DNA from: a virus
DNA: 64,000 nt
Reading direction: 5' to 3' (one strand)
IMG/VR virus record: IMGVR_UViG_3300020724_000005
The notes under the pieces are model-generated. The model had not been told where the DNA came from. It saw nothing but the letters and a program-made list of their open reading frames with translations, and ran no database searches. The position numbers were made by a program, and so were the translations under genes. Position 1 is the stretch's first letter, and each line of letters begins with the position of its first letter. Of the stretch, positions 40,968-64,000 are shown piece by piece.

Positions 40968-41072
40968 TTCGTTTTTCTTTTTGTTTGGTTAGTACTCCCA
41001 AGCGGTGCCGACCCGCCTTCTCCACCGTGAAAGGGTGGCGATCTAGCCAACGTGATCTATAGGAGCAATGTC

Positions 41073-41252
41073 TTATGCTAGGTAATATCCTGTGAAGCTT
41101 GGTTCCAACGCCCTCGCAAGGTTTTTAGCCTCTGACTCGATCACTGCTCCTGCCTTCGTGTATCCTTGCCAAAGAGGTGATGGTGTTATAGACCTCAGAA
41201 CGATCTTGTTTGGATTACCTTCTTCTTTTCTGAAAATTACTATCTTTCTCAT
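41073..41252 (-). CDS. hypothetical protein
   Basis: start set to MRKIVIFRKEEG; track N-extension reads through tRNA-Met. Confidence 0.5.
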   Translation of the reverse strand: MRKIVIFRKEEGNPNKIVLRSITPSPLWQGYTKAGAVIESEAKNLARALEPSFTGYYLA

Positions 41253-41281
41253 TATTTTTTGATTGAAACCTGTTAATTTGG

Positions 41282-41353
41282 TTGCGCCAGTGGGATTCGA
41301 ACCCACGACCCCCGGGTTATGAGCCCGATAAGCTACCGCTGCTCTACAGCGCA
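41282..41353 (-). tRNA. tRNA-Met (CAT)
   Basis: hand-folded cloverleaf, loop CTCATAA, T-arm GTGGG-TTCGAAT-CCCAC; three G:C pairs next to loop (initiator-like). Confidence 0.85.
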
Positions 41354-41516
41354 ATATAATTTTAAAAACGATCGTGGGTTGTCAACATCTTTCTTGTTGT
41401 CATCAGCCCCTTTTTCGCCGATCATTTTTATTTGATTGCTATATTATAAAAGTATTGAAACTTCTTTAACTTTTGCAATCTTTGTTTTGAGTGATCAGAT
41501 ATTTTATTCTCTGATC

Positions 41517-41913
41517 TGGTGTGGAACATGAGGGATTCGAACCCTCGTCCAAACAATGTTATCTAAGTAATTCTTTCACAAGCTTAGTGGATTTTTCTAA
41601 AAACACAAAATATGAAGTTTGATGTATGTGGGAAACCAACTTCTAAACAACCTGGTCTTGGAATTATTTTATAAGGGCTCCAACCTGCGACCCTCTCATT
41701 TGCACTTCTGTTTCTAGGCACGTGTGCACCGGCCCAAGGACTTAGGCGGCCATCTCTAGCTCACCTTCGGCGAACGCCATAGCGTCTTCGAATGTCCATG
41801 TAGAAAGCTCTACGTTTGCATTTGTGTTTTGATAGTCAGATTTAAGTGCGTCCGATCTAGCACTGCTTGCATCATCTCAAAGAGCTCTATCGCTGTCAAA
41901 ACCAGTATGCCCC
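41517..41913 (-). ncRNA. ssrA: tmRNA (SsrA)
   Basis: 5' GGGGCATACTGGTTTTGACAGCG; 3' GGACGAGGGTTCGAATCCCTCATGTTCCA; acceptor GGGGCAT/ATGTTCC with G3-U70; tag frame GCA(41819)...GCCGCCTAA(41742). Confidence 0.8.
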
Positions 41914-41932
41914 AGTCTCGTGCTTTATATAC

Positions 41933-41940
41933 TATAAATA
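41933..41940 (-). promoter_or_regulatory. TATTTATA upstream box (class II)
   Basis: 19 nt upstream of tmRNA 5' G (41913). Confidence 0.4.
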
Positions 41941-41948
41941 TACGTCTT

Positions 41949-42296
41949 TTAGTTTGATATTGGAAGTTTTTCTTTTGAGTTTATCCTTTTCTTCTTTTCT
42001 AGCGCTTCTTTGATCTCCGCACATAACTCATACTCCTCGAATCTGATCATATCATCCATCACAGCCTTAAGAGTTGGGATATAGTCCGCCTTATCTTTTG
42101 TAAATATTAACTCTTTTAAGTCTGCGGAATATTTCACATCAGTAAAGATCACTTCAAAAATACTGACTGTTTGTTTCTTATGCTTGATCGCATACAATAT
42201 TGTCTTGACCATCTTAACCAAAAGGTCGCGGTCTTTTTCTTTTATCTTTTGGAAGAACTCCTCCTTATTTTTAAAAGACAATACGTGTGATGCCAT
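41949..42296 (-). CDS. hypothetical protein
   Basis: 115-aa helical ORF, ATGA-type junction with upstream gene. Confidence 0.55.
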   Translation of the reverse strand: MASHVLSFKNKEEFFQKIKEKDRDLLVKMVKTILYAIKHKKQTVSIFEVIFTDVKYSADLKELIFTKDKADYIPTLKAVMDDMIRFEEYELCAEIKEALEKKKRINSKEKLPISN

Positions 42297-43033
42297 TAGT
42301 CATATGTGGATTTTACTTCAATATCTTTAATTTTTTCCAAAGCGATCGGCGGAATGTTATTCAATGTATAATATCCAGCTTTTAGATAATTTGGATCTTG
42401 ATAAAGTTTAAAATACTCACCAGGTATCATATCTGTATCTATCTTTAAAATAGCATACTTCTTAATCCCAGTCTTACTATACATTTGATAAGCTAATTGT
42501 TTGGCTACATTTTCCGTTTTTGCAAGATAAACTCTTTCTGGATGATATGATGCTTTTGATCTCGATTTGGGAACTAATCCTATGTCTTCAATCTTTTTCC
42601 AATTATCTAATGGGGCAATGTGATAGAGGGTTTTTGGGATCTTATTTACTTTAAAATCAAATTTAGCTTCACATCTTAAAAATATAGAATGTATTTTTTC
42701 ACTTTTTAGAGAACTTAAAAATGTAGTTTTATTGTATCTATCTTCAAACCTATTGGTATTACTATGAAGCTTCATATATGATATAAACCAGCCTAGATTA
42801 TTTAAGAGAACTAGTAGATCTTCTGCATCTTTAAGAGAAAAAGCATCTTTGCTTTTTAATATATCAATCTCAAAAGTATTTTCATCTTTCTCACTATATA
42901 TTTCATAATTAGGAAAGCGTCTATGCAGAATATCTATAGATTGTCCAATAGGAGTGGTCTTTATCTCACCTTCTCTAAGATTGAGATCATATTCTTCTTT
43001 ATAGAATTCTAAAAGTAATGTGAGTAACTTCAT
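42296..43033 (-). CDS. Tpt1/KptA-like (ADP-ribosyltransferase fold) protein, putative
   Basis: C-half LYHIAPLDNWKKIEDIGLVPKSR...RVYLAK...YAILKIDTDMIPGEYF...YYTLNNIPPIAL parallels KptA pattern LYHGT..I...GL.p..R..VHLS. Confidence 0.35.
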   Translation of the reverse strand: MKLLTLLLEFYKEEYDLNLREGEIKTTPIGQSIDILHRRFPNYEIYSEKDENTFEIDILKSKDAFSLKDAEDLLVLLNNLGWFISYMKLHSNTNRFEDRYNKTTFLSSLKSEKIHSIFLRCEAKFDFKVNKIPKTLYHIAPLDNWKKIEDIGLVPKSRSKASYHPERVYLAKTENVAKQLAYQMYSKTGIKKYAILKIDTDMIPGEYFKLYQDPNYLKAGYYTLNNIPPIALEKIKDIEVKSTYD

Positions 43034-43037
43034 CGAG

Positions 43038-43045
43038 TATAAATA
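43038..43045 (-). promoter_or_regulatory. TATTTATA upstream box (class II)
   Basis: 4 nt before ATG 43033. Confidence 0.3.
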
Positions 43046-43504
43046 TCAACCCTTAACAAGTGAGTCAGCCGCGTAGGTCATCATAGGGCTGTCTCCTTTG
43101 TGCCTCACGGTGTACCCAAGGCCCTCTGCCCAACCCACAGCCTCTCTCAAGACTTCGTTGGATTTGTATCTCGGATCAGGATTCAGATCGATGTCGATGT
43201 ACTTCGCTCTTGGCAGCCCGGCTTCCATTATATAATTTGCAAGGTCTATCGAATACCACACCTCGTTGATGAGCCTGGTCGAGATCTCTCTGTCCTTTGG
43301 AGTGGTGAACTTATCGTATATGACATGGGCGCCCTTGCCTGGAGTGTACATTGCCAAAACCAAAGCGTAAACTGTCACCCGGCCTTTTACCTGAGAGTCA
43401 CATCCGATGAGTATCTCTATGTCTTTGTGAGAACTCATGTACTGCTTCATGTAATCCAGAACTTCTACTGGAGTGTTTTCGTTTAACGTTTTGAACTTTC
43501 TCAT
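43046..43504 (-). CDS. YkuK/DUF458-type RNase H-like protein
   Basis: IGCDSQ, TPGKGAHV, DIDLNPDPRYKSN, AADSLVK match remembered DUF458 signature. Confidence 0.55.
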   Translation of the reverse strand: MRKFKTLNENTPVEVLDYMKQYMSSHKDIEILIGCDSQVKGRVTVYALVLAMYTPGKGAHVIYDKFTTPKDREISTRLINEVWYSIDLANYIMEAGLPRAKYIDIDLNPDPRYKSNEVLREAVGWAEGLGYTVRHKGDSPMMTYAADSLVKG

Positions 43505-43929
43505 GACACTGTGTGGTTTATCTGTACTCTAACGCAACTCTGTGGCCGTCTGCTCCTCATCAGATAGTTGTTTATGTACCCCATGATGTTAGCGCTGCCT
43601 ATAGGGTTTGCGCTGTGCGTATATATCTGCGGAAGAGCGATCTGTGTTTCTATGCTATGATCTACCAACCACTTTGCACAATCCATTCCAGTTTTCTCTT
43701 TTATATTATCATAGTCCAGGGTGTAGTTCGGAGACACGTTGGTATAGAACTCTGCCATCGCCGAGTCTCCAAGATCGTGGTCCAAAGATATGACCTCGAT
43801 GTTCTTAAGTCCTATCTCTATAACCTTTGAAACGAACTCATCATAATTTCTTACGACTGTCCACACCTTGTCCATTCCATTTGCTATTGGAGTTCTTACG
43901 TCGTCTAAATAGATCCAAACCTTTTCCAT
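43501..43929 (-). CDS. receiver-like domain protein (cyclic-phosphate-processing REC-like)
   Basis: start set to MEKVWIYLDDVRTP; ISLDHDLGD and THSANPIGSANI match cREC pattern. Confidence 0.5.
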   Translation of the reverse strand: MEKVWIYLDDVRTPIANGMDKVWTVVRNYDEFVSKVIEIGLKNIEVISLDHDLGDSAMAEFYTNVSPNYTLDYDNIKEKTGMDCAKWLVDHSIETQIALPQIYTHSANPIGSANIMGYINNYLMRSRRPQSCVRVQINHTVS

Positions 43930-43948
43930 GTTTTTTTGTTTTATCCTG

Positions 43949-44030
43949 TGCTCCAAGTGGGATTCGAACCCACACGTCTTACGACCACAGATCCTAAGTC
44001 TGTGCTGTCTACCAATTTCATCATCGGAGC
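43949..44030 (-). tRNA. tRNA-Leu (TAG)
   Basis: class II, loop CTTAGGA, long variable arm, T-arm GTGGG-TTCGAAT-CCCAC. Confidence 0.85.
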
Positions 44031-44224
44031 ATTTTACCACGTTTCATATCATCGTAGTTACTTCTGAGGTATCTAGACTGATACGGAATATGATTTAGTC
44101 TTCTTTTATAATTATCCCATTTTGCAATCGTTAGTAACAGTATCATCGCGCTTGTCGATACCACGCAAGCGGCAACGATGATCCATGCAAATACCTTATT
44201 ATCATGGTAGTGTTTGTGTGGCAT
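44021..44224 (-). CDS. hypothetical membrane protein
   Basis: 67 aa, one TM; last 10 nt overlap 5' end of tRNA-Leu. Confidence 0.45.
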   Translation of the reverse strand: MPHKHYHDNKVFAWIIVAACVVSTSAMILLLTIAKWDNYKRRLNHIPYQSRYLRSNYDDMKRGKMLR

Positions 44225-44233
44225 AGTTCATTT

Positions 44234-44353
44234 TTAGTTTTTATGTTCGCATGATTCGCAATATTCAGATCTTCGAGCATCATATTCCAGTCCGCATTTT
44301 TTACATATCATCCAGATCTCGTGGTTGAAAATCTTTATCAGTCTACTTATCAT
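44234..44353 (-). CDS. 39-aa zinc-ribbon peptide
   Basis: MISRLIKIFNHEIWMICKKCGLEYDARRSEYCESCEHKN; ATGA overlap with upstream stop. Confidence 0.35.
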   Translation of the reverse strand: MISRLIKIFNHEIWMICKKCGLEYDARRSEYCESCEHKN

Positions 44354-44520
44354 ATCAGTTTTATTTGAAACCTATCTTTCATCTTCTCCAGACTATCAAA
44401 GTCCCGAGTCCTGTCCAAGTTACCATTCCATGAAGTGACTCCTCGACAGATGTTCTTGTGGTTTATGTGTGTGTCAGAGGTGAAGAACATGTCTTGACCT
44501 TCTTTTAGTGTGATCTTCAT
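44350..44520 (-). pseudogene. N-terminal fragment of a metallophosphoesterase-like gene
   Basis: MKITLKEGQDMFFTSDTHINHKNICRG... has motif I only, ends after 56 aa. Confidence 0.35.
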
Positions 44521-44542
44521 TGCATTGTGTATTTTTATGCTG

Positions 44543-44616
44543 TGACTCGGATTGGATTCGAACCAATGACCCCCAGCTTAGAAGGCTGGTGCTCTATCCA
44601 GCTGAGCTACCGAGCC
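44543..44616 (-). tRNA. tRNA-Arg (TCT)
   Basis: canonical fold, loop CTTCTAA. Confidence 0.9.
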
Positions 44617-44622
44617 AAAATA

Positions 44623-44853
44623 TTAGTCTGTCCACTCTACGACCTCGTACTCTGTCTTTGTGAACGAGAGATATGGTGCCGAGGTGACTGGATCTTTTGA
44701 GTCTTTTATGTACTTTGGATTCGTGATGTATACTATCTTCGAATCATCTCCTTGCTCCCTTTCCTGTATTTTGCAAGGGATCGGGGTATCTGGAAGTTTG
44801 TATAATGTCTTCTCTGATCCTGGTTTGATCTTTATTGTCTTTGGTTGTTTCAT
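44623..44853 (-). CDS. hypothetical protein
   Basis: start set to MKQPKTIKIKPG; track extension overlaps tRNA-Thr. Confidence 0.5.
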   Translation of the reverse strand: MKQPKTIKIKPGSEKTLYKLPDTPIPCKIQEREQGDDSKIVYITNPKYIKDSKDPVTSAPYLSFTKTEYEVVEWTD

Positions 44854-44868
44854 TACTTTGATTTTTAG

Positions 44869-44940
44869 AGGACACACCCGGAACCGACCCAGGGACTCAT
44901 GCTTACAAGGCAAGTGTTTTTCCAGTTAAACTACGCGTCC
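44869..44940 (-). tRNA. tRNA-Thr (TGT)
   Basis: loop CTTGTAA; unusual T-loop GTCGGTT; one U-U in anticodon stem. Confidence 0.75.
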
Positions 44941-45104
44941 AAAATGAAGCTTTTAGATTATCCCCAGAGCTTCTCAACTGTGCTGGCATACGTTTTGGCT
45001 GCTCTGAATGAGCTCTCTTCCTCCAGAGGTTTAGTGGCGGGTAGTGTAGCTATACACCTTAACCAGACTTTCCTATCTTCGATCCCTTGGCCTTCGGGCT
45101 TTCG

Positions 45105-45179
45105 TGTACCATACAGGGTTTGAACCTGTGACCTACGGCTATAGGAGGCCGGCGCTCTAACCAACTGAGCTAATGGTAC
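45105..45179 (-). tRNA. atypical tRNA, 8-nt anticodon loop (Arg-CCT-like)
   Basis: good acceptor, D and T arms (ACAGG-TTCAAAC-CCTGT); anticodon stem CGGC/GCCG encloses CTCCTATA. Confidence 0.55.
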
Positions 45180-45186
45180 AAAAATG

Positions 45187-45258
45187 CGGTCCATGACGGT
45201 TTCGATCCGTCTACTCTGCATCGACAGTGCAGTATGATAGCCACTTCACCAAAAGACC
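45187..45258 (-). tRNA. tRNA-Asp (GTC)
   Basis: loop CTGTCGA; T-loop ATCGAAA (A at position 54). Confidence 0.85.
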
Positions 45259-45263
45259 AATTG

Positions 45264-45349
45264 CACGGGTTAAGGGATTTGCACCACCTTACAGTCATCA
45301 TACTTCTTGGCTGCGCTACCAAGTGTGCTTCTCTATACACCAAACCCGT
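45264..45349 (-). tRNA. tRNA-like element, class-II shape, anticodon undetermined
   Basis: perfect 7-bp acceptor ACGGGTT/AACCCGT, T-loop-like TGCAAAT, extra arm AGT..ACT, but central arm CTTGG-TAGCGCAG-CCAAG has 8-nt loop lacking U33 context. Confidence 0.35.
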
Positions 45350-45360
45350 ATTTTTTACTG

Positions 45361-45405
45361 TATTATAAAAGTACTAAAAGATCTTGACAATTATCAAACT
45401 ATCTT
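45361..45405 (-). promoter_or_regulatory. internal promoter of tRNA array (class I box)
   Basis: minus sense TTTG-N21-TACTTTTATAAT ending ~12 nt before element 45349. Confidence 0.4.
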
Positions 45406-45410
45406 TTTAG

Positions 45411-45486
45411 TGGCGGGTATAGTAGGGATCGAACCTACGACCAACAGATTAACAGCCTGCTGCGCTACCAACTGCGCTATATACCC
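45411..45486 (-). tRNA. tRNA-Asn (GTT)
   Basis: loop CTGTTAA; CCA encoded. Confidence 0.9.
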
Positions 45487-45495
45487 AAATTTATG

Positions 45496-45568
45496 TGGAA
45501 CTATCAAGACTCGAACTTGAATTACCTACGTATCAGGCAGGCGTGCTAAACCATTCTACTATAGTTCC
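45496..45568 (-). tRNA. tRNA-Ile (GAT)
   Basis: loop CTGATAC, perfect T-arm; weak D-stem. Confidence 0.8.
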
Positions 45569-45573
45569 ATGTG

Positions 45574-45658
45574 CGGAAGATGGAGGTAACGATCCCCCTT
45601 GGGTTTTATCCCAGCCATAGCTTAGCAAGCCAGCCGATTACCTTTCTCGCAATCTTCC
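45574..45658 (-). tRNA. tRNA-Ser (GCT)
   Basis: class II, loop TTGCTAA, T-loop ATCGTTA. Confidence 0.8.
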
Positions 45659-45663
45659 TTTTG

Positions 45664-45735
45664 GGGTCTAGCCCGGTATCGAACCGAGTTATCATGCTCC
45701 ACAAACATGCGCTTCACCTTAAAGCTTCAAGACCC
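45664..45735 (-). tRNA. tRNA-His (GTG)
   Basis: loop TTGTGGA; extra 5' G(-1) opposite C73. Confidence 0.85.
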
Positions 45736-45738
45736 ATA

Positions 45739-45828
45739 TGGCGGAAGAGGCAGGACTCGAACCTACACACCGAGCAAACGATACCGGTTTTCAAGACCGG
45801 GGCGATACCAATTACGCTTTACCCTTCC
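45739..45828 (-). tRNA. tRNA-Ser (TGA)
   Basis: class II, stem CCGGT/ACCGG, loop CTTGAAA; CCA encoded. Confidence 0.85.
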
Positions 45829-45830
45829 AA

Positions 45831-45908
45831 AATAACCACTACCTATCGGACGTCATCTTTAACCTTTTGGGATCCTAACCTCTCGGTCTCTAAAGGCTTG
45901 TGGTTATT
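45831..45908 (-). other. unassigned 78-nt element filling a tRNA-sized slot
   Basis: 9-bp terminal inverted repeat AATAACCAC/GTGGTTATT; no cloverleaf found on either strand. Confidence 0.2.
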
Positions 45909-45909
45909 G

Positions 45910-45981
45910 TAGTCGCTGATGGGATCGAACCACCATCTTCGGGACCAAAACCCGACGTGTTAGCCTTTATACTAAGCGACT
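45910..45981 (-). tRNA. tRNA-Gln (TTG)
   Basis: loop TTTTGGT, perfect acceptor AGTCGCT/AGCGACT. Confidence 0.85.
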
Positions 45982-45987
45982 ATGAGG

Positions 45988-46058
45988 AGCAGATACCCGG
46001 AATCGAACCGAGGCCTCCTACTTGGAAGGAAGGAGTACTACCACTATACGATATCTGC
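45988..46058 (-). tRNA. tRNA-Gly (TCC)
   Basis: loop CTTCCAA. Confidence 0.85.
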
Positions 46059-46064
46059 TTAAAG

Positions 46065-46136
46065 TAGTCCCTGTGAATTACGATATCACAACCTCTTGGA
46101 TGTAAGCCAAGTGCTCTCCCGTTGAGCTAAGGGACT
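46065..46136 (-). tRNA. tRNA-Val (TAC)
   Basis: loop CTTACAT, T-loop ATCGTAA. Confidence 0.85.
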
Positions 46137-46243
46137 AAGTATATTATTATTCGACTTTACTCACTTATAAACCTAAAACATTTGCAACTGAATTAGGTAT
46201 TTGTCAATTTATTCTGTTCTTAGCTGTGAGACTAATAATATTG

Positions 46244-46316
46244 TGGACCGTTCCAGATTCGAACCGGAGACTCCTGCGTGCAAGGCAAGTGTGTTAGCCA
46301 ACTATACCAACAGCCC
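46244..46316 (-). tRNA. tRNA-Ala (TGC)
   Basis: loop CTTGCAC; G3-U70 present. Confidence 0.9.
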
Positions 46317-46322
46317 ATTGTG

Positions 46323-46395
46323 TCTAGATGAAAGGTGACGATCCTTCCTAGTCTTGCTCCCAAAGCAAGTGCCTCACCAACTCGGCCACATCTAG
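46323..46395 (-). tRNA. tRNA-Pro (TGG)
   Basis: loop TTTGGGA; C1-G72; T-loop ATCGTCA. Confidence 0.85.
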
Positions 46396-46429
46396 ATATT
46401 TACTTTCCAATATGTCAAAGATCACACTG

Positions 46430-46501
46430 AGGTCGATATAGGACTCAAACCCATGTGGCAGGTTTTGCAGACCTGCGCCTAAATCACTCGGCCAATCGAC
46501 C
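46430..46501 (-). tRNA. tRNA-Cys (GCA)
   Basis: loop CTGCAAA; discriminator U73. Confidence 0.9.
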
Positions 46502-46507
46502 TTACTG

Positions 46508-46580
46508 TACCCTCAAAGAGATTCGAACTCCTATCTCCTGGTCCGTAGCCAGACGTTCTGATCCTTTGAACTACAAGGGC
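46508..46580 (-). tRNA. tRNA-Arg (ACG)
   Basis: loop CTACGGA. Confidence 0.85.
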
Positions 46581-46586
46581 ATTCTG

Positions 46587-46659
46587 CGCGCACGTAGGGA
46601 CTCGAACCCTCATCTTTGGTTTTGGAGACCAATACTCTAGCCAATTGAGCTACGCACGC
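46587..46659 (-). tRNA. tRNA-Trp (CCA)
   Basis: loop CTCCAAA. Confidence 0.85.
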
Positions 46660-46667
46660 ATTTTATA

Positions 46668-47051
46668 TTATAGATCCTTTATGAACTCACTCACAAGCCT
46701 TTTGTTCTCTGACTCGTCTCCGTCGTATCCTCCTGTGCTGAATACTGACCCTTCACGATCTCTGTATTTGAGAGAAGATACTGATGAGGACTCTAACTGC
46801 AACTGACCTTCGAATCCGTAGCAAGAACAGTGTGATCCGTGTATTTCAAATAGCCCCCCTGACGTCTTGTCTCTCAGAAGGAAGAACGATCTCGAATCGC
46901 ATCCCCAAGAACCTATAGACTCATAAGCTATGAGGACTTCTTTATTTTCAAGATCCGATCCGTCACCTTCTCCGTATTCCTGTGTGAGACGCTCTATGAT
47001 CTCGAATTCTGTCTTGCCTTGAAGATCTCCTAAAGTTAGTACGCTTGTCAT
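46668..47051 (-). CDS. hypothetical protein
   Basis: 127 aa; GSWGCDSRSFFLL...HGSHCSCYGFEGQ. Confidence 0.6.
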   Translation of the reverse strand: MTSVLTLGDLQGKTEFEIIERLTQEYGEGDGSDLENKEVLIAYESIGSWGCDSRSFFLLRDKTSGGLFEIHGSHCSCYGFEGQLQLESSSVSSLKYRDREGSVFSTGGYDGDESENKRLVSEFIKDL

Positions 47052-47052
47052 A

Positions 47053-47298
47053 TTATCTGTATTTTCTTATGAGTTTAAAAAGCTCTCGTATGTCTGTGAA
47101 TTTCAATGTTTGTCCTGGCTTTATAGGAATGAACGCTATCGTAAATCCGTGGTTGCCGCAAAAGTAGTCTTCCTTCTTTATCCTGTTACCGTTCACGCTA
47201 TCAACATATATCCAAGGAAAATTGCCTGCGAGTTTTACTTCTATCCCGAGTCGTTTCATCCTGTCTATGAATACCGTCAATATGTCTCTCTGCTTCAT
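47053..47298 (-). CDS. hypothetical protein
   Basis: 81-aa ORF. Confidence 0.55.
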   Translation of the reverse strand: MKQRDILTVFIDRMKRLGIEVKLAGNFPWIYVDSVNGNRIKKEDYFCGNHGFTIAFIPIKPGQTLKFTDIRELFKLIRKYR

Positions 47299-47383
47299 TT
47301 CCTATTGCTGTTTGGTATGTTATAAAAGTAAACAAAATAATCGACATTTTAAAGCTTTTTGACGTACATTTGTTTTTTTACTG
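47299..47383 (-). promoter_or_regulatory. intergenic cassette C1
   Basis: sense box TACTTTTATAAC; opposite strand TCGACA(47341)-N18-TACATTTG(47365-47372). Confidence 0.5.
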
Positions 47384-47457
47384 TGCGCCCGGTAGGGTTC
47401 GAACCTACGACCCCCTGGTTAAAAGCCAGGTGCATCTACCAACTGAGCTACGAGCGC
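47384..47457 (-). tRNA. tRNA-Lys (TTT)
   Basis: stem CCTGG/CCAGG, loop CTTTTAA; imperfect D-stem. Confidence 0.85.
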
Positions 47458-47527
47458 ATTCTTTGAAGTTTGCCACCCGTGTTTCAGAGCAGCGCTATCG
47501 TTTTCGTTTCATTTTCGTGTTTTTGTG

Positions 47528-47599
47528 TGGTAATGAGGAATTCCGAGATCCTGCCTACGGTGCTTCAAACCGCCGCTCTGCCATCTGAGCTACATTACC
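47528..47599 (-). tRNA. tRNA-Phe (GAA)
   Basis: loop TTGAAGC; unusual T-loop CTCGGAA. Confidence 0.8.
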
Positions 47600-48407: not shown

Positions 48408-48899
48408 TTAGTCCTGAGTGACCGTATATTTTTTTCCTAGCTTTGTTATGGCCTCTACTGCCTCGTGCAGCTCGATCCTGAAGAACTCCCTGTTGTTGGC
48501 CACCCTGTACGAGTCCAAGTACTGGTGGATCTCTTCTTCTAAGAACTGGGCCTCATGACATTTGAAGCTGTACTCGACTTTGAAAGGAGACGCTACACCT
48601 GTCGCGTTCGATATCTGGTAGGCTCTCTCCTCAGGCGTGTTCTTCGTGTACCCTATCTTCAAGAGCCCTGGCATAGTTGGGTTTGAGAGCACGTATATCC
48701 AATACCTGCCTTCTCGACCTGGACCTTGGAACGCCTTCTTCCTGGCTGTGTAGTACTTGACCTCGTCCCACTGCCTGCCGTCTTCTCCTACTGGAAGAGG
48801 GGTCAAAGTATAATACTCCACAGGGTAGCCAAGCAAGTCATCCTCCTTTGAGATGTAGGAATCTGCCTCTTCTGTTGTTATACGTTGTATCTTTATCAT
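48408..48899 (-). CDS. T5orf172/MUG113 (GIY-YIG superfamily) domain protein
   Basis: YWIYVLSNPTMPGLLKIGYTKNTPEERAYQIS...PFKVEYSF...EEEIHQYL...REFF. Confidence 0.65.
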   Translation of the reverse strand: MIKIQRITTEEADSYISKEDDLLGYPVEYYTLTPLPVGEDGRQWDEVKYYTARKKAFQGPGREGRYWIYVLSNPTMPGLLKIGYTKNTPEERAYQISNATGVASPFKVEYSFKCHEAQFLEEEIHQYLDSYRVANNREFFRIELHEAVEAITKLGKKYTVTQD

Positions 48900-49270: not shown

Positions 49271-49483
49271 CTAGCTCTCTAGTGTTACGAATGAACCAAA
49301 ATGCCTATCGAACACCGAGACAAGATTCTCATAGTCTCCACTTTTCATCTCTTCGATTATCGGTTTAGGATCCACGTCCAGCTGTTTGGCGAAATCAGTA
49401 GCGTACGCCATCAGAACATATGCGTTGCCATCAGGACCAGTAAGGTCAATGATCCTCTCCTTTTGTGTCTTTTTACGTATCAT
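49271..49483 (-). CDS. hypothetical 70-aa protein
   Basis: MIRKKTQKERIIDLTGPDGNAYVLMAYATDF...; ATG 11 nt after stop of xSQL gene. Confidence 0.5.
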   Translation of the reverse strand: MIRKKTQKERIIDLTGPDGNAYVLMAYATDFAKQLDVDPKPIIEEMKSGDYENLVSVFDRHFGSFVTLES

Positions 49484-49494: not shown

Positions 49495-49740
49495 TTAGAG
49501 CTGTGACCTGAGCTGTGACCTGAGCTGTGACCTGAGCTGTGACCTGATGAGCTGTGAACCGAGCTGTGACCTGAGCTGTGAACCGAGCTGTGAACCGAGC
49601 TGTGACCAGAGCTGTGAATAGAGCTGTAACCTGAGCTGTGACCAGAGCTGTGAACCGAGCTGTGAATAGAGCTGTGAATAGAGCTGTGAATTGAGCTGTG
49701 AATAGAGCTGTGAATTGAGCTGTGAATCGATCTGCTTCAT
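49495..49740 (-). CDS. xSQL tetrapeptide-repeat microprotein, copy 1
   Basis: MKQID then ~19 units xSQL (x = N,Y,G,W,R); ATG 3 nt after TACATTTA box; stop right after array. Confidence 0.5.
   Translation of the reverse strand: MKQIDSQLNSQLYSQLNSQLYSQLYSQLGSQLWSQLRLQLYSQLWSQLGSQLGSQLRSQLGSQLIRSQLRSQLRSQLRSQL
49498..49728 (-). repeat. 12-nt tandem array GAGCTGTGA+NNN
   Basis: about 19 head-to-tail units; 9 nt constant, last 3 nt variable; open in all frames. Confidence 0.95.
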
Positions 49741-49803
49741 ATCTAAATGTACGTCTTTTTTGTGAAAATTTTAAGCCATTCTCTAAAGTCCGGCCCAAAC
49801 AGC

Positions 49804-50331: not shown

Positions 50332-50507
50332 TTTCTTGAGTCTATGTTTAATGCGTTGACTATCTCCCAAAGGCAATCCCCAGTCGAGTTGAAGATGTTA
50401 TCCTCGGTATACCACGCTGCCTCTACTTCGTCTTGCCCATACATGTCTTCGAACGCCGCGTTGATCCTTGGCGGAACTGGGTCTATGAAATATTTTGTCT
50501 GTTTCAT
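50328..50507 (-). CDS. hypothetical 59-aa protein
   Basis: MKQTKYFIDPVPPRINAAFEDMYGQDEVEAAWYTEDNIFNSTGDCLWEIVNALNIDSRK; more protein-like than overlapping track ORF 50398..50625. Confidence 0.45.
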   Translation of the reverse strand: MKQTKYFIDPVPPRINAAFEDMYGQDEVEAAWYTEDNIFNSTGDCLWEIVNALNIDSRK

Positions 50508-50655
50508 ATATACATTTTTCTGGGATACTCAAATTTTCCTGGGGTTTGGAGTCGGCTTTTTTGCTTTTTTGCCCAAAACCCGGCGGCCGGATCTGCCCTT
50601 CGAGTAAGTATGCCCTGTTGTTCATATCTAAATGTACCTCTTTTTTTGGTCATCA

Positions 50656-51117: not shown

Positions 51118-51381
51118 CTAGACCATCGCGCCCGTGTAGTACAGGTGCTCTTTTTCTATCATGTGTGTCGTCACGTGGCACTCCAGCTCTCTGAGCACTT
51201 GAGAGCTCAAGATCTCCTCTAGGGTGTCTACCAACACGTAGTCATCGAACCGCTGGCCTCCGTGCTCTTTCTTTATGCCTATCGAGTAGGTGATCTTGTC
51301 TTCTGTGGCTATCGCCGCCTGGTAGCTTACGTTCTTGCTCAGCCAATAGAGAACTGAGTCTCTGTCCATTATGCGTGTCAT
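51118..51381 (-). CDS. hypothetical protein
   Basis: start set to MTRIMDRDSVLYW (ATG 51381) just after cassette C2. Confidence 0.5.
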   Translation of the reverse strand: MTRIMDRDSVLYWLSKNVSYQAAIATEDKITYSIGIKKEHGGQRFDDYVLVDTLEEILSSQVLRELECHVTTHMIEKEHLYYTGAMV

Positions 51382-51458
51382 GCTGTTGTTGTTTGGTATG
51401 ATGTAAAAGTACGCAATACTTTTTACATTTTTCATTTTTTGGTCGTATATTTGTTTTT
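51382..51458 (-). promoter_or_regulatory. intergenic cassette C2
   Basis: sense box TACTTTTACATCATACC; opposite strand TTTACA(51422)-N18-TATATTTG(51446-51453). Confidence 0.5.
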
Positions 51459-51602
51459 TTAACGCATCACCTCTGACTCTATCCTCTTGGCGATCTCGTC
51501 TAGGTCGTCTGCTGAGACCTCTAGCCAGTATGTGCCAGTGGCGTACTCGTTGAATATCTTCTTTATCTGGTCCTGTATGGACTCGCTGTTCTGTGCGTTC
51601 AT
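51459..51602 (-). CDS. hypothetical 47-aa protein (paralog of 53782..53940)
   Basis: MNAQNSESIQDQIKKIFNEYATGTYWLEVSADDLDEIAKRIESEVMR. Confidence 0.5.
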   Translation of the reverse strand: MNAQNSESIQDQIKKIFNEYATGTYWLEVSADDLDEIAKRIESEVMR

Positions 51603-51686
51603 GCTGATCTGTGTTTGTGAGAGCCCAGGCCATCATCTGACTAATTCCTTGCCGCGCTCTTGGCCAGGTAGCCTGGGCTCCCATGT

Positions 51687-51932
51687 CTACATATGGCTCA
51701 GCGTACTACTGAGCTGTGAATCGAGCTGTGACCTGAGCTGTGAATTGAGCTGTGACCAGAGCTGTGAATCGAGCTGTGAATCGAGCTGTGACCAGAGCTG
51801 TGAATCGAGCTGTGACCTGAGCTGTAAATTGAGCTGTGAATAGAGCTGTTCCCTGAGCTGTGACCTGAGCTGTGAACCGATCTGTGACCTGAGCTGTGAA
51901 TTGAGCTGTGACCTTACGTCTATCTGTTTCAT
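51687..51932 (-). CDS. xSQL tetrapeptide-repeat microprotein, copy 2
   Basis: MKQIDVR then ~17 xSQL units (x = N,R,G,Y,D,W,E). Confidence 0.5.
   Translation of the reverse strand: MKQIDVRSQLNSQLRSQIGSQLRSQLREQLYSQLNLQLRSQLDSQLWSQLDSQLDSQLWSQLNSQLRSQLDSQLSSTLSHM
51711..51914 (-). repeat. 12-nt tandem array GAGCTGTGA+NNN
   Basis: same unit as 49498..49728. Confidence 0.95.
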
Positions 51933-52012
51933 GGTATTATGTTTTGGTAGTTAAATAAGAAAGTAGCGGACGTATTAGCCAGCTCCTCTCTGTGTATCAA
52001 ACAACAACTCTC

Positions 52013-53119
52013 TTATTTGTATTTTGCTATCAGGATCTCCAGCTCTTCTAGGAACTGCGGTAGTCTGTCTGTAGGGATCTGCTCTGTCTGTGCGAACCTC
52101 CATTTGAACATGTGCACCTCATCTCCTTTCTCATTGATCACGTGATAGTACCCGTCCTCTTCTCCTACGATCTGATACTCTTTGCCGTTAGTCAAATGCC
52201 TGTAAGATCCAGCCTCTTGGCATGTCATCATCCTTTTGCGTGGCTTCTCTGCCTCTTCTGCGTATGGTTCAAAGCAATCGTATGGTGTATGGTAGACGGT
52301 ATTCTCCAGATCAAAGAACCATTCTCCTCCTTCGGCAATTCTATTACTACTGAAGCCTGTTATCGTGTAGATCTCTCCTACTTGCAGGTTCGCTTCTTTG
52401 ATATAATATGCTGCACTCTTATAGATCATTGAGTCTGTCTTGACCAGCTTCACTTTCATTCCAGGTTTGTATCCCAGCCTCTTGATCTCCGCAGTGTGGT
52501 CTGTCTTTGGCTCTTCTGGTTCTATCTTCTTACGATCTCCTCTTTTGCCCCTATATGGTAGGTTCATGAAAGTGTCTTCTCGTGGATCTACTAATGTCCA
52601 AGGGTGACCATATTCGTTGATGATCCTGGTCGCGTATCCATCGCTGTCTGTCTCAAGGACTTCGTACTCGTGGCCTTCTATGTAGTATCTTGAATTGGTC
52701 TTTGTGCACCTGACGTATAGATTCCCTTCTAAGGAATTATTCCCGGCTTTGTACTCTTCGAGTCTCCTTTTCAGATCGTTATTATACGCAGGATCCTTCT
52801 TGACGTACTCTCTTCCGTTGTAATATCCATCTTTATATCCCATTAGCGTTTCTAGCGCAAACAGGGACATAAAGTCTGGTACCCGATGTTCTACTCGCCA
52901 AAGTCCTCTCTTGACATTGGTGATGAACCCAGCACGTCTGAAATACGACTGGTAGGCACGTACGCGGTACCACTGTCCGTACCATACTCTGTGTTGACCT
53001 TTTTCTCGAGTCATATCATAGAGTGCATTCTTAAAGTCCTCGCTCGTGTATGTTTCTCCTGGTTTGTAGGCGTTGATGAAGTTGACAACTGCAAAATAGA
53101 TCGTTCCTTGCTTTATCAT
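52013..53119 (-). CDS. hypothetical protein with internal beta-rich repeats
   Basis: 368 aa; three related segments (YIEGHEYEVLETDSDGY, LQVGEIYTITGF, LTNGKEYQIVGEEDGYY). Confidence 0.65.
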   Translation of the reverse strand: MIKQGTIYFAVVNFINAYKPGETYTSEDFKNALYDMTREKGQHRVWYGQWYRVRAYQSYFRRAGFITNVKRGLWRVEHRVPDFMSLFALETLMGYKDGYYNGREYVKKDPAYNNDLKRRLEEYKAGNNSLEGNLYVRCTKTNSRYYIEGHEYEVLETDSDGYATRIINEYGHPWTLVDPREDTFMNLPYRGKRGDRKKIEPEEPKTDHTAEIKRLGYKPGMKVKLVKTDSMIYKSAAYYIKEANLQVGEIYTITGFSSNRIAEGGEWFFDLENTVYHTPYDCFEPYAEEAEKPRKRMMTCQEAGSYRHLTNGKEYQIVGEEDGYYHVINEKGDEVHMFKWRFAQTEQIPTDRLPQFLEELEILIAKYK

Positions 53120-53202
53120 AATATTTTGATTGTTTGTTACTTAGTAAATGTACGTGAAATAATCGACTTAAAAAAGCTTTTTGTCAGGTATTTGTTTTCA
53201 TA
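53120..53202 (-). promoter_or_regulatory. intergenic cassette C3
   Basis: sense box GTACATTTAC; opposite strand TCGACT(53163)-N18-GGTATTTG(53187-53194). Confidence 0.5.
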
Positions 53203-53703
53203 CTATGACATATATCCCCGACCGTCTTCGTAGAATTCCCACCCGTTATCTATAATATGATCGGATATCGCCTCTTCAGAGCAAAGATATTCGTATTCAT
53301 TCTCTAACATATTAAGGTATTCTCTACTGAGGTCTTCGAGATACGCTTCTTCCAATTCTTCCAGTTCTGCTTCAGTCTTGGCTGTGTCTTCTTGGCGCTC
53401 CAGTTCATCCAGATCGCTCAGAAACTTCTTGGCGATGGAATATGTGGCGCAATGCTCACCGTGCTCAGAAACGACCTTGAGAGCGCTAGATTTGGCTGAC
53501 GTAGTGAAATTTGCCTTAATGTATGGAGGATATAGATCGAATTCTTCTATATCAAGGCCTGCTGTCCCCTTGGCGTCTTCTTTGACTGTATCTGACCACC
53601 AACCGTATCCTGTCAGTAGTTCTGAGTTGTCGGCGAGGACTTTGGCCTGTGCCTTTTCTGATAGCTCTTCAAATTTGCAAATGTTCTGTGTTACTGTACG
53701 CAT
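53203..53703 (-). CDS. hypothetical acidic protein
   Basis: start set to MRTVTQNICKFEELSEKAQAKV; ...GYGWWSD...; ends NGWEFYEDGRGYMS. Confidence 0.55.
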   Translation of the reverse strand: MRTVTQNICKFEELSEKAQAKVLADNSELLTGYGWWSDTVKEDAKGTAGLDIEEFDLYPPYIKANFTTSAKSSALKVVSEHGEHCATYSIAKKFLSDLDELERQEDTAKTEAELEELEEAYLEDLSREYLNMLENEYEYLCSEEAISDHIIDNGWEFYEDGRGYMS

Positions 53704-53781
53704 GTTGTTTGTTGTTTGGTATGTTATAAAAGTACGTGAAATAATTGACACTAGAAAGTTTCTGGACGTATATTTGTTTTC
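53704..53781 (-). promoter_or_regulatory. intergenic cassette C4
   Basis: sense box GTACTTTTATAAC; opposite strand TTGACA(53745)-N18-TATATTTG(53769-53776). Confidence 0.55.
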
Positions 53782-54602: not shown

Positions 54603-54764
54603 TTATATAGACCAAGACCCAGACCCAGACTCAGACCAAGACCCAGACCCAGACCTAGACCCAGACCTAGACCTAGACCAAGACCTAGACCAAGACCCAG
54701 ACCAAGACCAAGACCCAGACCAAGACCTAGACCCAGACTTCTTTTTAAATTTAATACAGCTCAT
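54603..54764 (-). CDS. S-x dipeptide-repeat microprotein
   Basis: MSCIKFKKKSGSRSWSGSWSWSGSWSRSWSRSRSGSRSGSGSWSESGSGSWSI; ATG 2 nt after upstream stop. Confidence 0.45.
   Translation of the reverse strand: MSCIKFKKKSGSRSWSGSWSWSGSWSRSWSRSRSGSRSGSGSWSESGSGSWSI
54610..54739 (-). repeat. 6-nt tandem array GACC(C/A/T)A
   Basis: about 21 units; minus sense TCT-NGG with N = G/A/T. Confidence 0.95.
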
Positions 54765-55063: not shown

Positions 55064-55657
55064 TTATATAGCCTTTAGTTGATACTTCTTTCCATCTATC
55101 TCTACTACTTTACCCTCGCAGCAATCTTCTTTTGGTAATCCGGTCTCAATTAACTCACCGTAACACACTTGACCTAGTACTAATTTGCCTACTTTTATTT
55201 GCATCTCTTCTTTAGTAGGTATTTTCCAAGTAGTTAATCCGGCAAATATTCTTAGTTTACTTGATAGCTCTCCTTTACAAATTATACCCCAACCAGCTTC
55301 AATACCCCAACCAGCTTCAATACCCCAACCAGCTTTAATACCCCAACCAGCTTCAATACCCAAACCAGCTTTAATACCCCAACCAGCTTTAATACCCCAA
55401 CCAGCTTTAATACCACAACCAGCTTTAATACCCCCACCAGCTTTAATACCCCCACTAGCTTCAATACCATCGCCAGCTTCAATACCACTACCAGCTTTAA
55501 AGTATATATTACCGGAAGCAGTTAAGTGGCCTTTGAATTTTACTGTTCCGAGGTCTTCTTCTGCTTCTATATGTCCTTGGTAGTTACTTAGGTCTTCTTT
55601 ACCTACGTAGTAATTGTCTTTGTCTAAATGCTCTTTTTTAATTAGAAATGTGTTCAT
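55064..55657 (-). CDS. hexapeptide-repeat (beta-helix-like) protein
   Basis: 197 aa; eleven GI(K/E)AGx units flanked by non-repetitive N- and C-domains. Confidence 0.65.
   Translation of the reverse strand: MNTFLIKKEHLDKDNYYVGKEDLSNYQGHIEAEEDLGTVKFKGHLTASGNIYFKAGSGIEAGDGIEASGGIKAGGGIKAGCGIKAGWGIKAGWGIKAGLGIEAGWGIKAGWGIEAGWGIEAGWGIICKGELSSKLRIFAGLTTWKIPTKEEMQIKVGKLVLGQVCYGELIETGLPKEDCCEGKVVEIDGKKYQLKAI
55284..55500 (-). repeat. 18-nt tandem array
   Basis: ATACCCCAACCAGCTT(C/T)A units, ~12 copies, encode GI(K/E)AG(W/G/L/C/S/D). Confidence 0.9.
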
Positions 55658-60180: not shown

Positions 60181-60221
60181 ATAGTTGATTATTATTCTGG
60201 TTTTTTATTTATGATGTGGTT

Positions 60222-60365
60222 CTATTCTTCTAGTCGTATTATAGGTATGAGTGATAGTACCTGTTGTAGTTCTAGGAAATTATCAATTGTGTTCATGATA
60301 TCCTTTGGTAGTCTTTTGATCACTGTGTCTTGGATCGATGTCATCTCTATAATATTCTGTTTCAT
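60222..60365 (-). CDS. hypothetical 47-aa protein
   Basis: MKQNIIEMTSIQDTVIKRLPKDIMNTIDNFLELQQVLSLIPIIRLEE. Confidence 0.3.
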   Translation of the reverse strand: MKQNIIEMTSIQDTVIKRLPKDIMNTIDNFLELQQVLSLIPIIRLEE

Positions 60366-60593
60366 CGTGTCGTCCTCAGTCGTTCTTCTAGTTCAGTCAA
60401 TAGTTGGGATGCTTTTAGCGGGAGTGTCCATAGGATTAGCTTTGTTGTCCAATCGGTTCTTAGTGATCCATAGTCTATATCATATATCCTTTTGGCATGG
60501 AGTAGTACTTGGACTTTACGCTATGTGGAGTGTCCAGTTGTGATCCTATCTTTCCAGGATTTCTGATTATCATCTGGTATGATATCTGTTTCA

Positions 60594-60752
60594 TTATTCT
60601 ATCCTATCTTTTAATGCTGAGATGATCCTGTACATGTGAGCTCTCGTTAGTTCCATGTCTATTGAGCTCGGTTCCAGTTTTATCCTTAGTGTATCTATCT
60701 GTTCTGACCTTAGAGCGTCACTCCTCTCTATGTAACCTGTTATATTTTTCAT
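60594..60752 (-). CDS. hypothetical 52-aa protein
   Basis: MKNITGYIERSDALRSEQIDTLRIKLEPSSIDMELTRAHMYRIISALKDRIE; ATGA overlap. Confidence 0.35.
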   Translation of the reverse strand: MKNITGYIERSDALRSEQIDTLRIKLEPSSIDMELTRAHMYRIISALKDRIE

Positions 60753-60931
60753 TGAATGTGGAGTTGATCTTCTAATGGTCTACCGACTCCTCTTAATTGA
60801 TCGCCAAACGAAGAGTATATGTTATAAATGTGACGATTTAATTCACGTATAGATGGAAACTCCTTTGGATGTCTTTCTGACAGATCGCAAGAATCGACTA
60901 TCTTAGCGAATATGATCTCTGTGTCTTTCAT
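60749..60931 (-). CDS. hypothetical protein
   Basis: 60-aa ORF. Confidence 0.45.
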   Translation of the reverse strand: MKDTEIIFAKIVDSCDLSERHPKEFPSIRELNRHIYNIYSSFGDQLRGVGRPLEDQLHIQ

Positions 60932-60937
60932 GTTATA

Positions 60938-61093
60938 CTAAAAATAATAAATTCTAAGTTGACGCATCTGTGGATACTTTGGATCTATGAGGTTATCGAA
61001 TATCAGATCATTGAATACTACGTTATCTAACCCTCTGAATAGTACCCAAGGTTGTATTTTGCCTAAGAATTCTATACGATGCAGCTGTCTCAT
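60938..61093 (-). CDS. hypothetical 51-aa protein
   Basis: MRQLHRIEFLGKIQPWVLFRGLDNVVFNDLIFDNLIDPKYPQMRQLRIYYF; ATGA overlap. Confidence 0.35.
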   Translation of the reverse strand: MRQLHRIEFLGKIQPWVLFRGLDNVVFNDLIFDNLIDPKYPQMRQLRIYYF

Positions 61094-61894: not shown

Positions 61895-61938
61895 AGATAT
61901 AAAAGTAACACAAGGTCTAATAGGAAAGAAATCTATCT

Positions 61939-63702: not shown

Positions 63703-63852
63703 CTATTTGCCAGATTTGTATCTTTCTATCAGTCCTTTTGCGTAAATTTTCAAGCTGCCTATCTTTATATCTACTCCGTTGAAAGTCAGATAGAAAGTAA
63801 ATAGGACGAATGATATTATCCTGATGACGTTTAACTTATTGATCTTCTTCAT
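63703..63852 (-). CDS. 49-aa TM peptide
   Basis: MKKINKLNVIRIISFVLFTFYLTFNGVDIKIGSLKIYAKGLIERYKSGK; ATGA overlap with stop of xSQL copy 3. Confidence 0.35.
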   Translation of the reverse strand: MKKINKLNVIRIISFVLFTFYLTFNGVDIKIGSLKIYAKGLIERYKSGK

Positions 63853-64000
63853 GCTTTTATGTTTTGGAGCTGTGAATCGAGCTGTGACCAGAGCTGTAAA
63901 TTGAGCTGTGAACCGAGCTGTGAACCGAGCTGTGACCAGAGCTGTGAATTGAGCTGTGACCTGAGCTGTGACCTGAGCTGTGAACCGAGCTGTGAATAGA
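63849..64000 (-). CDS. xSQL tetrapeptide-repeat microprotein, copy 3 (5' end outside window)
   Basis: same frame ...DSQLQNIKA stop at 63849-63851; array runs to window edge. Confidence 0.45.
   Translation of the reverse strand, partial: YSQLGSQLRSQLRSQLNSQLWSQLGSQLGSQLNLQLWSQLDSQLQNIKA
63867..64000 (-). repeat. 12-nt tandem array GAGCTGTGA+NNN (truncated by window)
   Basis: same unit as 49498 and 51711 arrays. Confidence 0.95.

Follow-up and report, generated by a model that had tools for sequence, protein, structure and literature searches.

In-frame coding repeats whose unit number varies are already known in general. In type IC HsdS proteins (EcoR124I/EcoR124II, EcoDXXI), 12-bp repeats encoding tetrapeptides of the TAEL/LEAT type are located in the central conserved region, and the number of these helical four-residue units shifts by unequal crossing-over, which alters the geometry of the protein. 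Transcription activator-like effectors with their repeat-variable diresidues (TALE RVDs), pentapeptide repeats (PF00805) and the collagen-like G-X-Y fibres of phages likewise combine a short period, a fixed framework with a variable position, and recombination. In the variable regions of diversity-generating retroelements (DGRs), hypervariation is directed at individual codons, and the residues N, D, Y, G, S, H and R are abundant. Here we analyzed three arrays of a 12-nucleotide (nt) repeat in the IMG/VR virus record IMGVR_UViG_3300020724_000005, of which a stretch of 64,000 nt was studied (the window; positions are numbered from its first letter). Each array occupies a small minus-strand gene, hereafter microgene, that encodes tetrads of the form x-S-Q-L with a variable residue x. 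From their sequences, the arrays are best read as genuine protein-coding microgenes, and their repeat is the same peptide module as the central insertion of phage DUF6745-family proteins.

Among the described systems, the 12-bp repeats of HsdS may be regarded as the closest mechanistic analogue of this locus. However, HsdS repeats comprise 2-4 units as compared with 5-60 here, contain no hypervariable residue and are embedded between two target-recognition domains, whereas such domains are absent from the microprotein, whose 81 amino acids (aa) are all repeat. A weak PADLOC match of the microproteins to the repeat region of HsdS ('Specificity_I', expectation value (E) 1e-3 to 8e-3, profile positions 156-218) is at the chance level for a low-complexity query and is taken as an analogy only. 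TALE RVDs, pentapeptide repeats and collagen-like fibres differ in that none of them has a four-residue period, and the microproteins show no sign of nucleic-acid binding or of a beta-helix. Pentapeptide repeats in particular have a period of 5 rather than 4, and the microproteins gave no Pfam match even at E ≤ 1. In contrast to DGR variable regions, the variation at x is not adenine-templated and follows the shuffling of whole units, and no template repeat was seen. Further candidates were discarded: the microproteins score 12.9-20.9 bits against DUF826 (PF05696), for which the cut-off is 25, and the matches of large arrays to this family are sums of sub-threshold pieces; the 933W protein encoded between nanS-p and S, considered as a DUF826 candidate, is an ordinary helical protein without tetrads; and the PDB 'ARID domain' match 23fj_R is an unrelated low-complexity PGQM tetrad. 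A previous reading of the locus from its letters alone (the sequence-only reading) had stated that no family of this kind is described. This holds for the publications searched and for Pfam, PHROG and NCBIfam models, none of which covers the SQL repeat, but not for the module itself, which is the central repeat of DUF6745 proteins. What appears to be undescribed is the x-S-Q-L tetrad with one hypervariable residue of restricted palette, its spread in a big phage family, and its occurrence as free multi-copy microgenes.

Tandem Repeats Finder identified three period-12 arrays in the window, each on the minus strand and arranged head-to-tail, and their translations agree with the (x-S-Q-L)n arrays that the sequence-only reading had placed at these positions. 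The exact 9-mer TCACAGCTC was found 42 times in the window, every time on the minus strand and never outside the three arrays, while dinucleotide-preserving shuffles averaged 0.58 occurrences and never exceeded 3. The array of copy 1, at 49498..49725, is made up of 18 perfect TCACAGCTC cores, one TTACAGCTC and one in-frame 3-nt insertion (ATC). As had been proposed, variation is concentrated in one codon per unit, and six x codons cover all 47 units of the window (AGG 14, GGT 8, AAT 7, TAT 6, TGG 6 and GAT 6). Only a handful of 12-nt unit types occur per genome. Copy 3 runs past the window end, with its start 58 nt beyond it. Contig L006, which is 100% identical to window positions 60219-64000 and continues further, contains the complete open reading frame (ORF) of copy 3 (positions 1953-2162 of L006; 69 aa, MNEIN...QNIKA and a stop) and adds two microgenes upstream of it; therefore, the phage has at least five. 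The same arrays recur in independent assemblies (L010, L006 and about ten further contigs), which excludes the assembly artefact that the sequence-only reading had considered.

To compare the microgenes with those of relatives, an exact three-unit DNA pattern was used, which retrieved 15 stretches of IMG/VR viral contigs with about 35 arrays. The microgenes in this set range from 30 to 98 aa and comprise 5-20 tetrads preceded by 5-8 residues. In the SQL frame, an ATG and the leader MK[QE]I[N/D/S] stand directly before the first unit in 25 of the 25 microgene arrays checked, as compared with an ATG in none of 50 cases in the alternative frames of the same strand. The array had been described as open in all six frames, but this does not hold: the three minus-strand frames are open, while the plus-strand frames across copy 1 contain 19, 4 and 9 stops. 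Irregular unit spacings amount to 15, 24, 27 or 36 nt, each divisible by 3, so that all indels are in frame; a lone spacing of 38 nt is the junction of two microgenes with an ATGA overlap. Conservation of the SQL frame in relatives, which had been proposed as a test of coding, was thus observed. No internal stop or frameshift was found in about 430 units, although 3 of the 27 possible single-base changes to the 9-nt core produce a stop, and a stop codon within the array was seen only in L003 and L009, in the final 1-2 units.

The parent family became apparent from contig L015, in which the DNA unit of the arrays is part of a 370-aa ORF consisting of an N-domain of ~78 aa, 20 x-S-Q-[LI] tetrads and a C-terminal DUF6745 domain (Pfam PF20530, E 1.9e-51). 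Nearly all phmmer matches of the microprotein consist of an N-domain and an SQL array clipped at contig ends. A search with the L015 protein yielded 739 proteins at E ≤ 1e-10, which are 270 to 530 aa long and differ chiefly in unit number (~6 to ~60). Their layout comprises an N-terminal domain of ~70-110 aa (M..LT.EQE..IP.Y..KW...SP), the SQL array and a DUF6745 domain of ~206 profile positions. Near-identical pairs differ by whole units only, namely by 10 units in P0019/P0020 and by 20 units in P0023/P0069. A peptide-level scan of viral contigs returned more than 584 stretches. The best 80 loci contain 88 arrays, of which 54 are of the DUF6745 type, 29 are clipped by contig ends and 5 are microgenes, all of the window's own lineage. 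Many protein matches also end inside the repeat. Since the arrays break short-read assemblies and gene callers skip small ORFs, the family is under-counted.

An array of x-S-Q-[LIV] tetrads with mainly D, Y, R, G, H, N, W or S at x is therefore a feature of the DUF6745 family that is present in the microgenes. Both forms share the unit, the x palette, unit-number polymorphism and codon homogeneity within arrays, and the SQL codons TCA-CAG-CTC are common to the microgenes and the DUF6745 genes of L015, L002 and L103. They differ in that DUF6745 proteins have N- and C-domains and are encoded by a single gene, whereas the microgenes have a 5-residue leader and occur in multiple copies in a myovirus. 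PF20530 was absent from the microproteins and their flanking ORFs in Pfam scans, the best tblastn match of the L015 C-domain in the window had an E of 2.5, and the N-domains of L015 and L002 gave no tblastn match there. In the search of genomes for a donor or host, only L103, a 3.2-kb fragment of a metagenome-assembled genome, has a true array of this codon set; 12 other genome matches were rejected as chance repeats of 3 units. DUF6745 genes are found in replication/recombination modules (DnaB, ERF, RecT, NinG, methylases, HNH) of roughly 40-kb phages, and a protein of Microcystis phage Ma-LMM01 carries a DUF6745 annotation. A conserved gene of ~110-130 aa (phrog_27831; e.g. L024 4096-4485) adjoins the DUF6745 genes in about two thirds of the loci (31 of 91 flanking ORFs) and is likely a functional partner of the family. 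This neighbour has no Pfam or PDB match and is absent from the window.

Across lineages, the x-S-Q-L tetrad is written by at least 20 different 9-nt sets, with one homogeneous set per array (among them TCG-CAG-CTC, AGC-CAG-TTG, TCC-CAR-TTA, TCT-CAA-CTA and AGT-CAG-CTC). Therefore, the peptide is the conserved entity, and the invariance of nine bases inside an array is the outcome of concerted evolution. The palette at x was counted over 2274 units in 101 arrays of the parent family. It is dominated by D (28%), Y (21.5%), R (17%) and G (16%), followed by H (4%), N and W (3% each) and E and S (2% each). Arg occupies 395 of these units and is written with five codons, while Lys occurs once and Gln, Thr and Met do not occur. 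In the microgenes, 383 units gave similar counts (R 63, D 61, N 56, Y 53, W 40, A 38, G 38 and S 19), with K, E, Q, T, M, I and P all at zero. These results show that selection maintains the frame, the S-Q-L framework and a narrow x palette (D, Y, R, G, N, W, S, H, A).

The window and L010 share 99.4% identity over 6.7 kb. The arrays represent 7% of the aligned length yet carry 10 of the 17 substitutions, all 10 of them amino-acid changing (10 in 492 nt of array and 7 in 6222 nt of flank; odds ratio 18, p = 5e-8). The arrays diversify ~18 times faster than their flanks. The copy 2 orthologue in L010 is shorter by 24 nt (2 units) and differs by 7 substitutions; the copy 1 orthologue is of equal length with 3 substitutions, which are the only differences among 1001 aligned bases around copy 1 and all fall in three adjacent units. 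The locus thus behaves as a variable number tandem repeat in a coding frame, in that unit number is polymorphic between near-identical genomes and the frame is kept, and the recombination-driven variable locus suggested by the sequence-only reading is borne out by the 24-nt indel and the excess of array substitutions. In L010, copies 1 and 3 share an identical run of 132 nt, corresponding to 11 units with the same order of x, despite unlike leaders and tails, while the identical run shared by copies 1 and 3 of the window is only 59 nt long. Taken together, the mutational hotspots in the arrays, the shared runs of units and the few unit types per genome point to slippage, unequal recombination and exchange between arrays, and not to a targeted mutator.

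Entire microgenes also vary between relatives. Only a single lineage of Melnitz-like myoviruses has the stand-alone form, in 5 or more copies per genome. These copies can be sorted into positional classes, within which both the element upstream and the neighbour downstream are conserved. Class a is preceded by a cassette of 24-27 nt and followed by a 70-aa gene, class b shares an ATGA with the 49-aa hydrophobic ORF that follows it, class c carries the upstream element TTTTATATTCTAACAAATCAAGGTTTATG, and class d is of the copy 2 type. Tandem duplicates were found in L004 (three copies), L005 (four), L006 (two to three) and L009 (three), and in L012 and L008 a microgene separates two genes that are direct neighbours in the window near position 34340. 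The box TACATTTA before the ATG had been singled out by the sequence-only reading. By itself it is not enriched in the window (7 found, 3.7 expected), but it is part of a 24-nt cassette, AAAAAAGAGGTACATTTAGATATG, which also precedes an ordinary 75-aa ORF at 50398-50625 and has 2 matches in the window compared with 0 in shuffles. The cassette likewise stands ahead of class a microgenes in L001 (twice), L009 (three times) and L010. A scan for promoters and terminators gave no signal exceeding shuffles. Microgenes and downstream genes are tightly coupled, by stop/start overlaps or by gaps of 2-11 nt. The gene downstream of copy 1 shares 64% identity with gp55 of Methylophilales phage Melnitz, which has no microgene at the corresponding site, and the ATGA junction and 49-aa gene that follow copy 3 were also found in L003, L004, L005, L006, L011 and L013.

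Table 1. Positions of the arrays, microgenes and neighbouring features in the window, unless another contig is named.
Feature	Position	Strand	Description
12-nt array of copy 1	49498-49726	-	18.8 copies, score 256, 86% matches (Tandem Repeats Finder)
12-nt array of copy 2	51708-51911	-	17 copies, score 219 (Tandem Repeats Finder)
12-nt array of copy 3	63867-63996	-	10.8 copies, clipped by window end (Tandem Repeats Finder)
Microgene copy 1	49495..49740	-	MKQID, 19 x-S-Q-L units, TAA; 81 aa
Microgene copy 2	51687..51932	-	MKQIDVR, about 17 units, SSTLSHM, TAG; 81 aa
Microgene copy 3, 3' part	63849..64000	-	11 units, QNIKA, TGA
Two more SQL microgenes, MKQINSQLRLQLRLRLY...	L006 1310-1750, past window end		67 and about 75 aa, back to back, ending in QNT and a stop
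24-nt initiation cassette AAAAAAGACGTACATTTAGATATG	49738..49761	-	Upstream of copy 1, ends in the start codon
Conserved 70-aa gene	49271..49483	-	11 nt downstream of copy 1; phrog_1933, E 4e-9
188-aa ORF	51118..51684	-	Begins 2 nt after copy 2 stop; no family match
49-aa ORF with hydrophobic stretch	63703..63852	-	ATG overlaps copy 3 stop (ATGA)
tRNA cluster	40992-47599	-	About 20-21 genes, 2-8 kb from copy 1
Transfer-messenger RNA (tmRNA)	41519-41913	-	Rfam RF00023, 69.6 bits (gathering score 47), E 1.8e-25
tRNA with 8-nt anticodon loop	45104-45179	-	Four-base anticodon 'ccta' (ARAGORN); Rfam tRNA score 61 bits
tRNA	47528-47599		Found with Rfam, missing from the ARAGORN list
T5orf172/MUG113 (GIY-YIG-like) domain protein	48408-48899	-	E 9e-18; 0.6 kb downstream of copy 1
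Accessory-gene indel	51976-53763		~1.8 kb directly upstream of copy 2; ORFs at 52013-53119 and 53203-53751
(x-S)n microgene	54603-54764	-	MSCIKFKKK followed by (x-S)n, x = G/W/R/E; period 6/18 nt, 21.7 copies
Hexapeptide-repeat protein	55064-55657	-	197 aa, about 12 hexapeptides GI[KE]AG[WLC]; 18-nt period, 12.1 copies

As to the role of the microgenes, we consider it probable, as a whole, that they are coding genes sharing the DUF6745 module, diversified through their repeats, whose product serves as a helical decoy or competitor. Arrays gain and lose 12-nt units and swap blocks of units while keeping one codon set per array, and entire microgenes with their own upstream cassette undergo gain, loss and tandem duplication between conserved genes. 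The product may form a long alpha-helical rod or hairpin, on which the x residues would line up as a variable stripe for recognition. In DUF6745 proteins the module looks like a 'stalk' of variable length and surface; a free copy of it would most likely bind the target of the stalk or pair with the stalk itself, and would thereby serve in conflicts between phages or between phage and host as a decoy or competitor. Such a role is favoured because many stalk-only copies, an accessory region, and rapid gain and loss fit the profile of conflict genes. AlphaFold2 predicted a single helix for copy 1 from its single sequence (residues 2-80; predicted local distance difference test (pLDDT) 85.9). For the short DUF6745 protein P0091, modelled from an alignment of 55 sequences, the N and C domains pack together (pLDDT 86.7, predicted template-modelling score 0.77), and matches of this fold in BFVD are only DUF6745 or uncharacterised proteins.

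Several observations weigh against this interpretation. The repeat in the P0091 model is a low-confidence excursion from the body of the protein (pLDDT <50). Single-sequence helix predictions are unreliable for repeats, a strict four-residue period is at odds with the way canonical coiled coils pack, and the residues G, N, D and S, all found at x, are poor helix formers. The DUF6745 fold of P0091 has no PDB match at E ≤ 0.001, and in the literature library searched neither DUF6745 nor the SQL repeat is mentioned by any publication. The window has neither a DUF6745 nor a phrog_27831 gene, so that an encounter of the microprotein with its proposed partner is putative. Copy 2, like some other copies, lacks a clear Shine-Dalgarno sequence. 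The coding status itself is read from sequence, and departures from the core comprise 30 synonymous and 64 non-synonymous changes, with no sign of purifying selection on point mutations; this test is uninformative, however, because units spread by duplication and concerted evolution dominates. Finally, the stand-alone microgenes known so far have all inherited a single codon set, so that the argument from codon diversity reaches the parent family only. What speaks for coding in the microgenes is therefore the integrity of their ORFs, together with their parallel to the parent family.

A search with a degenerate pattern of leader and SQL units for stand-alone microgenes with other codon sets found the lineage of the window only. 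In a different lineage, L115 carries a called ORF of 78 aa (953-1189) with ~10 x-S-Q-L-like units written TCC-CAG-CTC and an ambiguous start codon. It is flanked by a 189-aa ORF on one side and by a Trypsin_2 protease gene on the other, has no DUF6745 context and may be an independent stand-alone array.

A broader reading, which we hold to be rather unlikely, is that x-S-Q-L arrays constitute an undescribed combinatorial recognition scaffold that serves as an 'antenna' of DUF6745 proteins or, in free multi-copy form, as decoys or antagonists. The S, Q and L residues may provide a fixed framework with one specificity residue per four-residue step (~6 angstroms in a helix), and the palette dominated by Asp, Tyr, Arg and Gly may be likened to that of minimalist synthetic antibody libraries, here reached with no dedicated mutator. 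If the peptides are made and act via their variable stripe, slippage that shuffles 12-nt cassettes would be a new, enzyme-free route to binding diversity in phages. It would also provide a first handle on DUF6745, which has at least 739 members in phages and prophages. The stand-alone microproteins are the minimal form of the most variable part of the family and hence the simplest reagent for finding the binding target of that part.

The main functional rival to the decoy or competitor is a self-assembling material that forms fibres, amyloid-like sheets or condensate scaffolds without a specific partner. Assembly would be driven by Leu, Ser and Gln and tuned at x by Tyr/Trp/Arg 'stickers' and Gly/Ser/Asn/Asp 'spacers'. 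The perfectly periodic, low-complexity sequence and an x palette that is rich in Y, W, R and G and excludes K are consistent with this idea, as is the nearby (x-S)n microgene with G, W or R at x. Several copies per genome suggest a need for dosage, and a four-residue period might suit the faces of a beta-strand (x,Q / S,L) equally well as a helix. Nevertheless, the sole structure prediction is helical, the repeat of the parent family is an internal insertion in a globular protein that is no obvious polymer, and the microproteins have no signal peptide. We give self-assembly only a small chance.

The readings of the microgenes as remnants, as leader ORFs or as DNA elements are less likely than both the decoy and self-assembly. 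As non-functional captured fragments of DUF6745 genes, the microgenes would persist and expand only as recombinogenic repeats. They do correspond to the repeat part of DUF6745 proteins only, share their codon set with the DUF6745 genes of three contigs, lack a synonymous excess in the core, and are present or absent between relatives. However, every copy starts from an ATG of its own with a conserved leader of 5 residues, ORFs remain intact even where the flanks are only 70-87% identical, and the 430 or so units without lesion, the restriction of the x palette as in functional parent arrays, and the positional classes with their conserved upstream cassette and tight downstream coupling are not what leftovers would predict. 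We regard this explanation as improbable.

A regulatory leader ORF, in which the run of TCA, CAG and CTC codons gates the adjacent downstream gene, could sense charged tRNA-Ser, -Gln and -Leu or an attack by an anticodon nuclease. The close junctions with downstream genes, the extreme codon monotony, and the proximity of ~20 tRNAs, including Ser(tga), Gln(ttg) and Leu(tag), and of a tmRNA would be in line with such a role. Yet the downstream genes differ by microgene class, the Melnitz homologue of the gene below copy 1 has no leader, and some microgenes precede only another microgene (L004, L005). The same peptide is moreover kept with many codon sets inside large proteins, and the mRNA structure is unremarkable (z = -0.16), which makes gating of this kind quite improbable.

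The sequence-only reading had also considered a protein-binding array at the DNA level. According to this explanation, the repeats are protein-binding iterons, an origin or a recombination hotspot, and the ORF is incidental. Near-invariance of 9 of 12 bases in every microgene, synonymous sites included, and the rapid change of the arrays could be expected of such an element. The proposal fares badly, however, given that related proteins write the same peptide with other, lineage-specific and homogeneous codon sets, and concerted evolution explains the invariance. A start codon and leader in every array checked with all indels in frame, a variable triplet that avoids stops and has a restricted palette with synonymous codons, and a 12-bp period unlike the DNA helical repeat also speak against it. 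No Rfam family falls on the arrays, be it for a role of DNA or of RNA. We consider a DNA-level role very improbable.

Diversification of the x codon by a DGR or another targeted mutator can scarcely be credited: variation is confined to one codon per unit and 4 of the 6 x codons in the window have the form NNT that adenine mutagenesis of AAT would yield, but TGG and AGG, which make up 20 of the 47 window units, are impossible from an AAT template, Arg is also written CGC, CGT and CGG in large arrays and GCC codons are likewise not adenine-derived, none of about 35 arrays is an all-AAT, template-like one (a dedicated search for a reverse transcriptase was not made), and the few unit types per genome with blocks common to arrays indicate cassette shuffling.

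The genome that carries the arrays is that of a Melnitz-like, T4-type myovirus. Window proteins include an SbcC-like nuclease, with 43% identity to its counterpart in Microcystis phage Mel-JY01, and baseplate wedge proteins; Methylophilales phage Melnitz itself belongs to the Kyanoviridae and has a genome of 141 kb. The locus gave zero matches to 50,697 phage records in megablast and blastn searches, so that no cultured phage corresponds to it at the DNA level, and tblastn of the microprotein against cultured-phage records also gave zero matches, probably from low-complexity masking. The microgenes belong to a cluster of small ORFs on the minus strand, of the kind that is typical for accessory regions in T4-type phages. 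L010, although otherwise 99.4% identical, lacks the accessory-gene segment upstream of copy 2, and the two ORFs of this segment have only weak PHROG matches to uncharacterised families. Downstream of copy 1, the T5orf172/MUG113 protein shows weak PHROG matches to homing endonucleases.

The tRNA cluster includes Ser(tga), Gln(ttg), Leu(tag), Asp, Asn, His, Trp and two Arg genes, and ARAGORN gives ANVELSTWTFEDAMAFAEGELEMAA as the tag peptide of the tmRNA. The tRNA with the enlarged anticodon loop could be of a suppressor or frameshift type, as CTA would read TAG. Genome-wide recoding is unlikely, because large structural ORFs are intact under the standard code. Two further repeat proteins are encoded between copies 2 and 3. 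The (x-S)n microgene has no family match, and its x palette overlaps that of the SQL arrays. The hexapeptide-repeat protein has no Pfam or PHROG match, and towards the C-terminus it is similar to the tail of an (SSGxxSQLA)n repeat protein encoded by L082 (979-2433).

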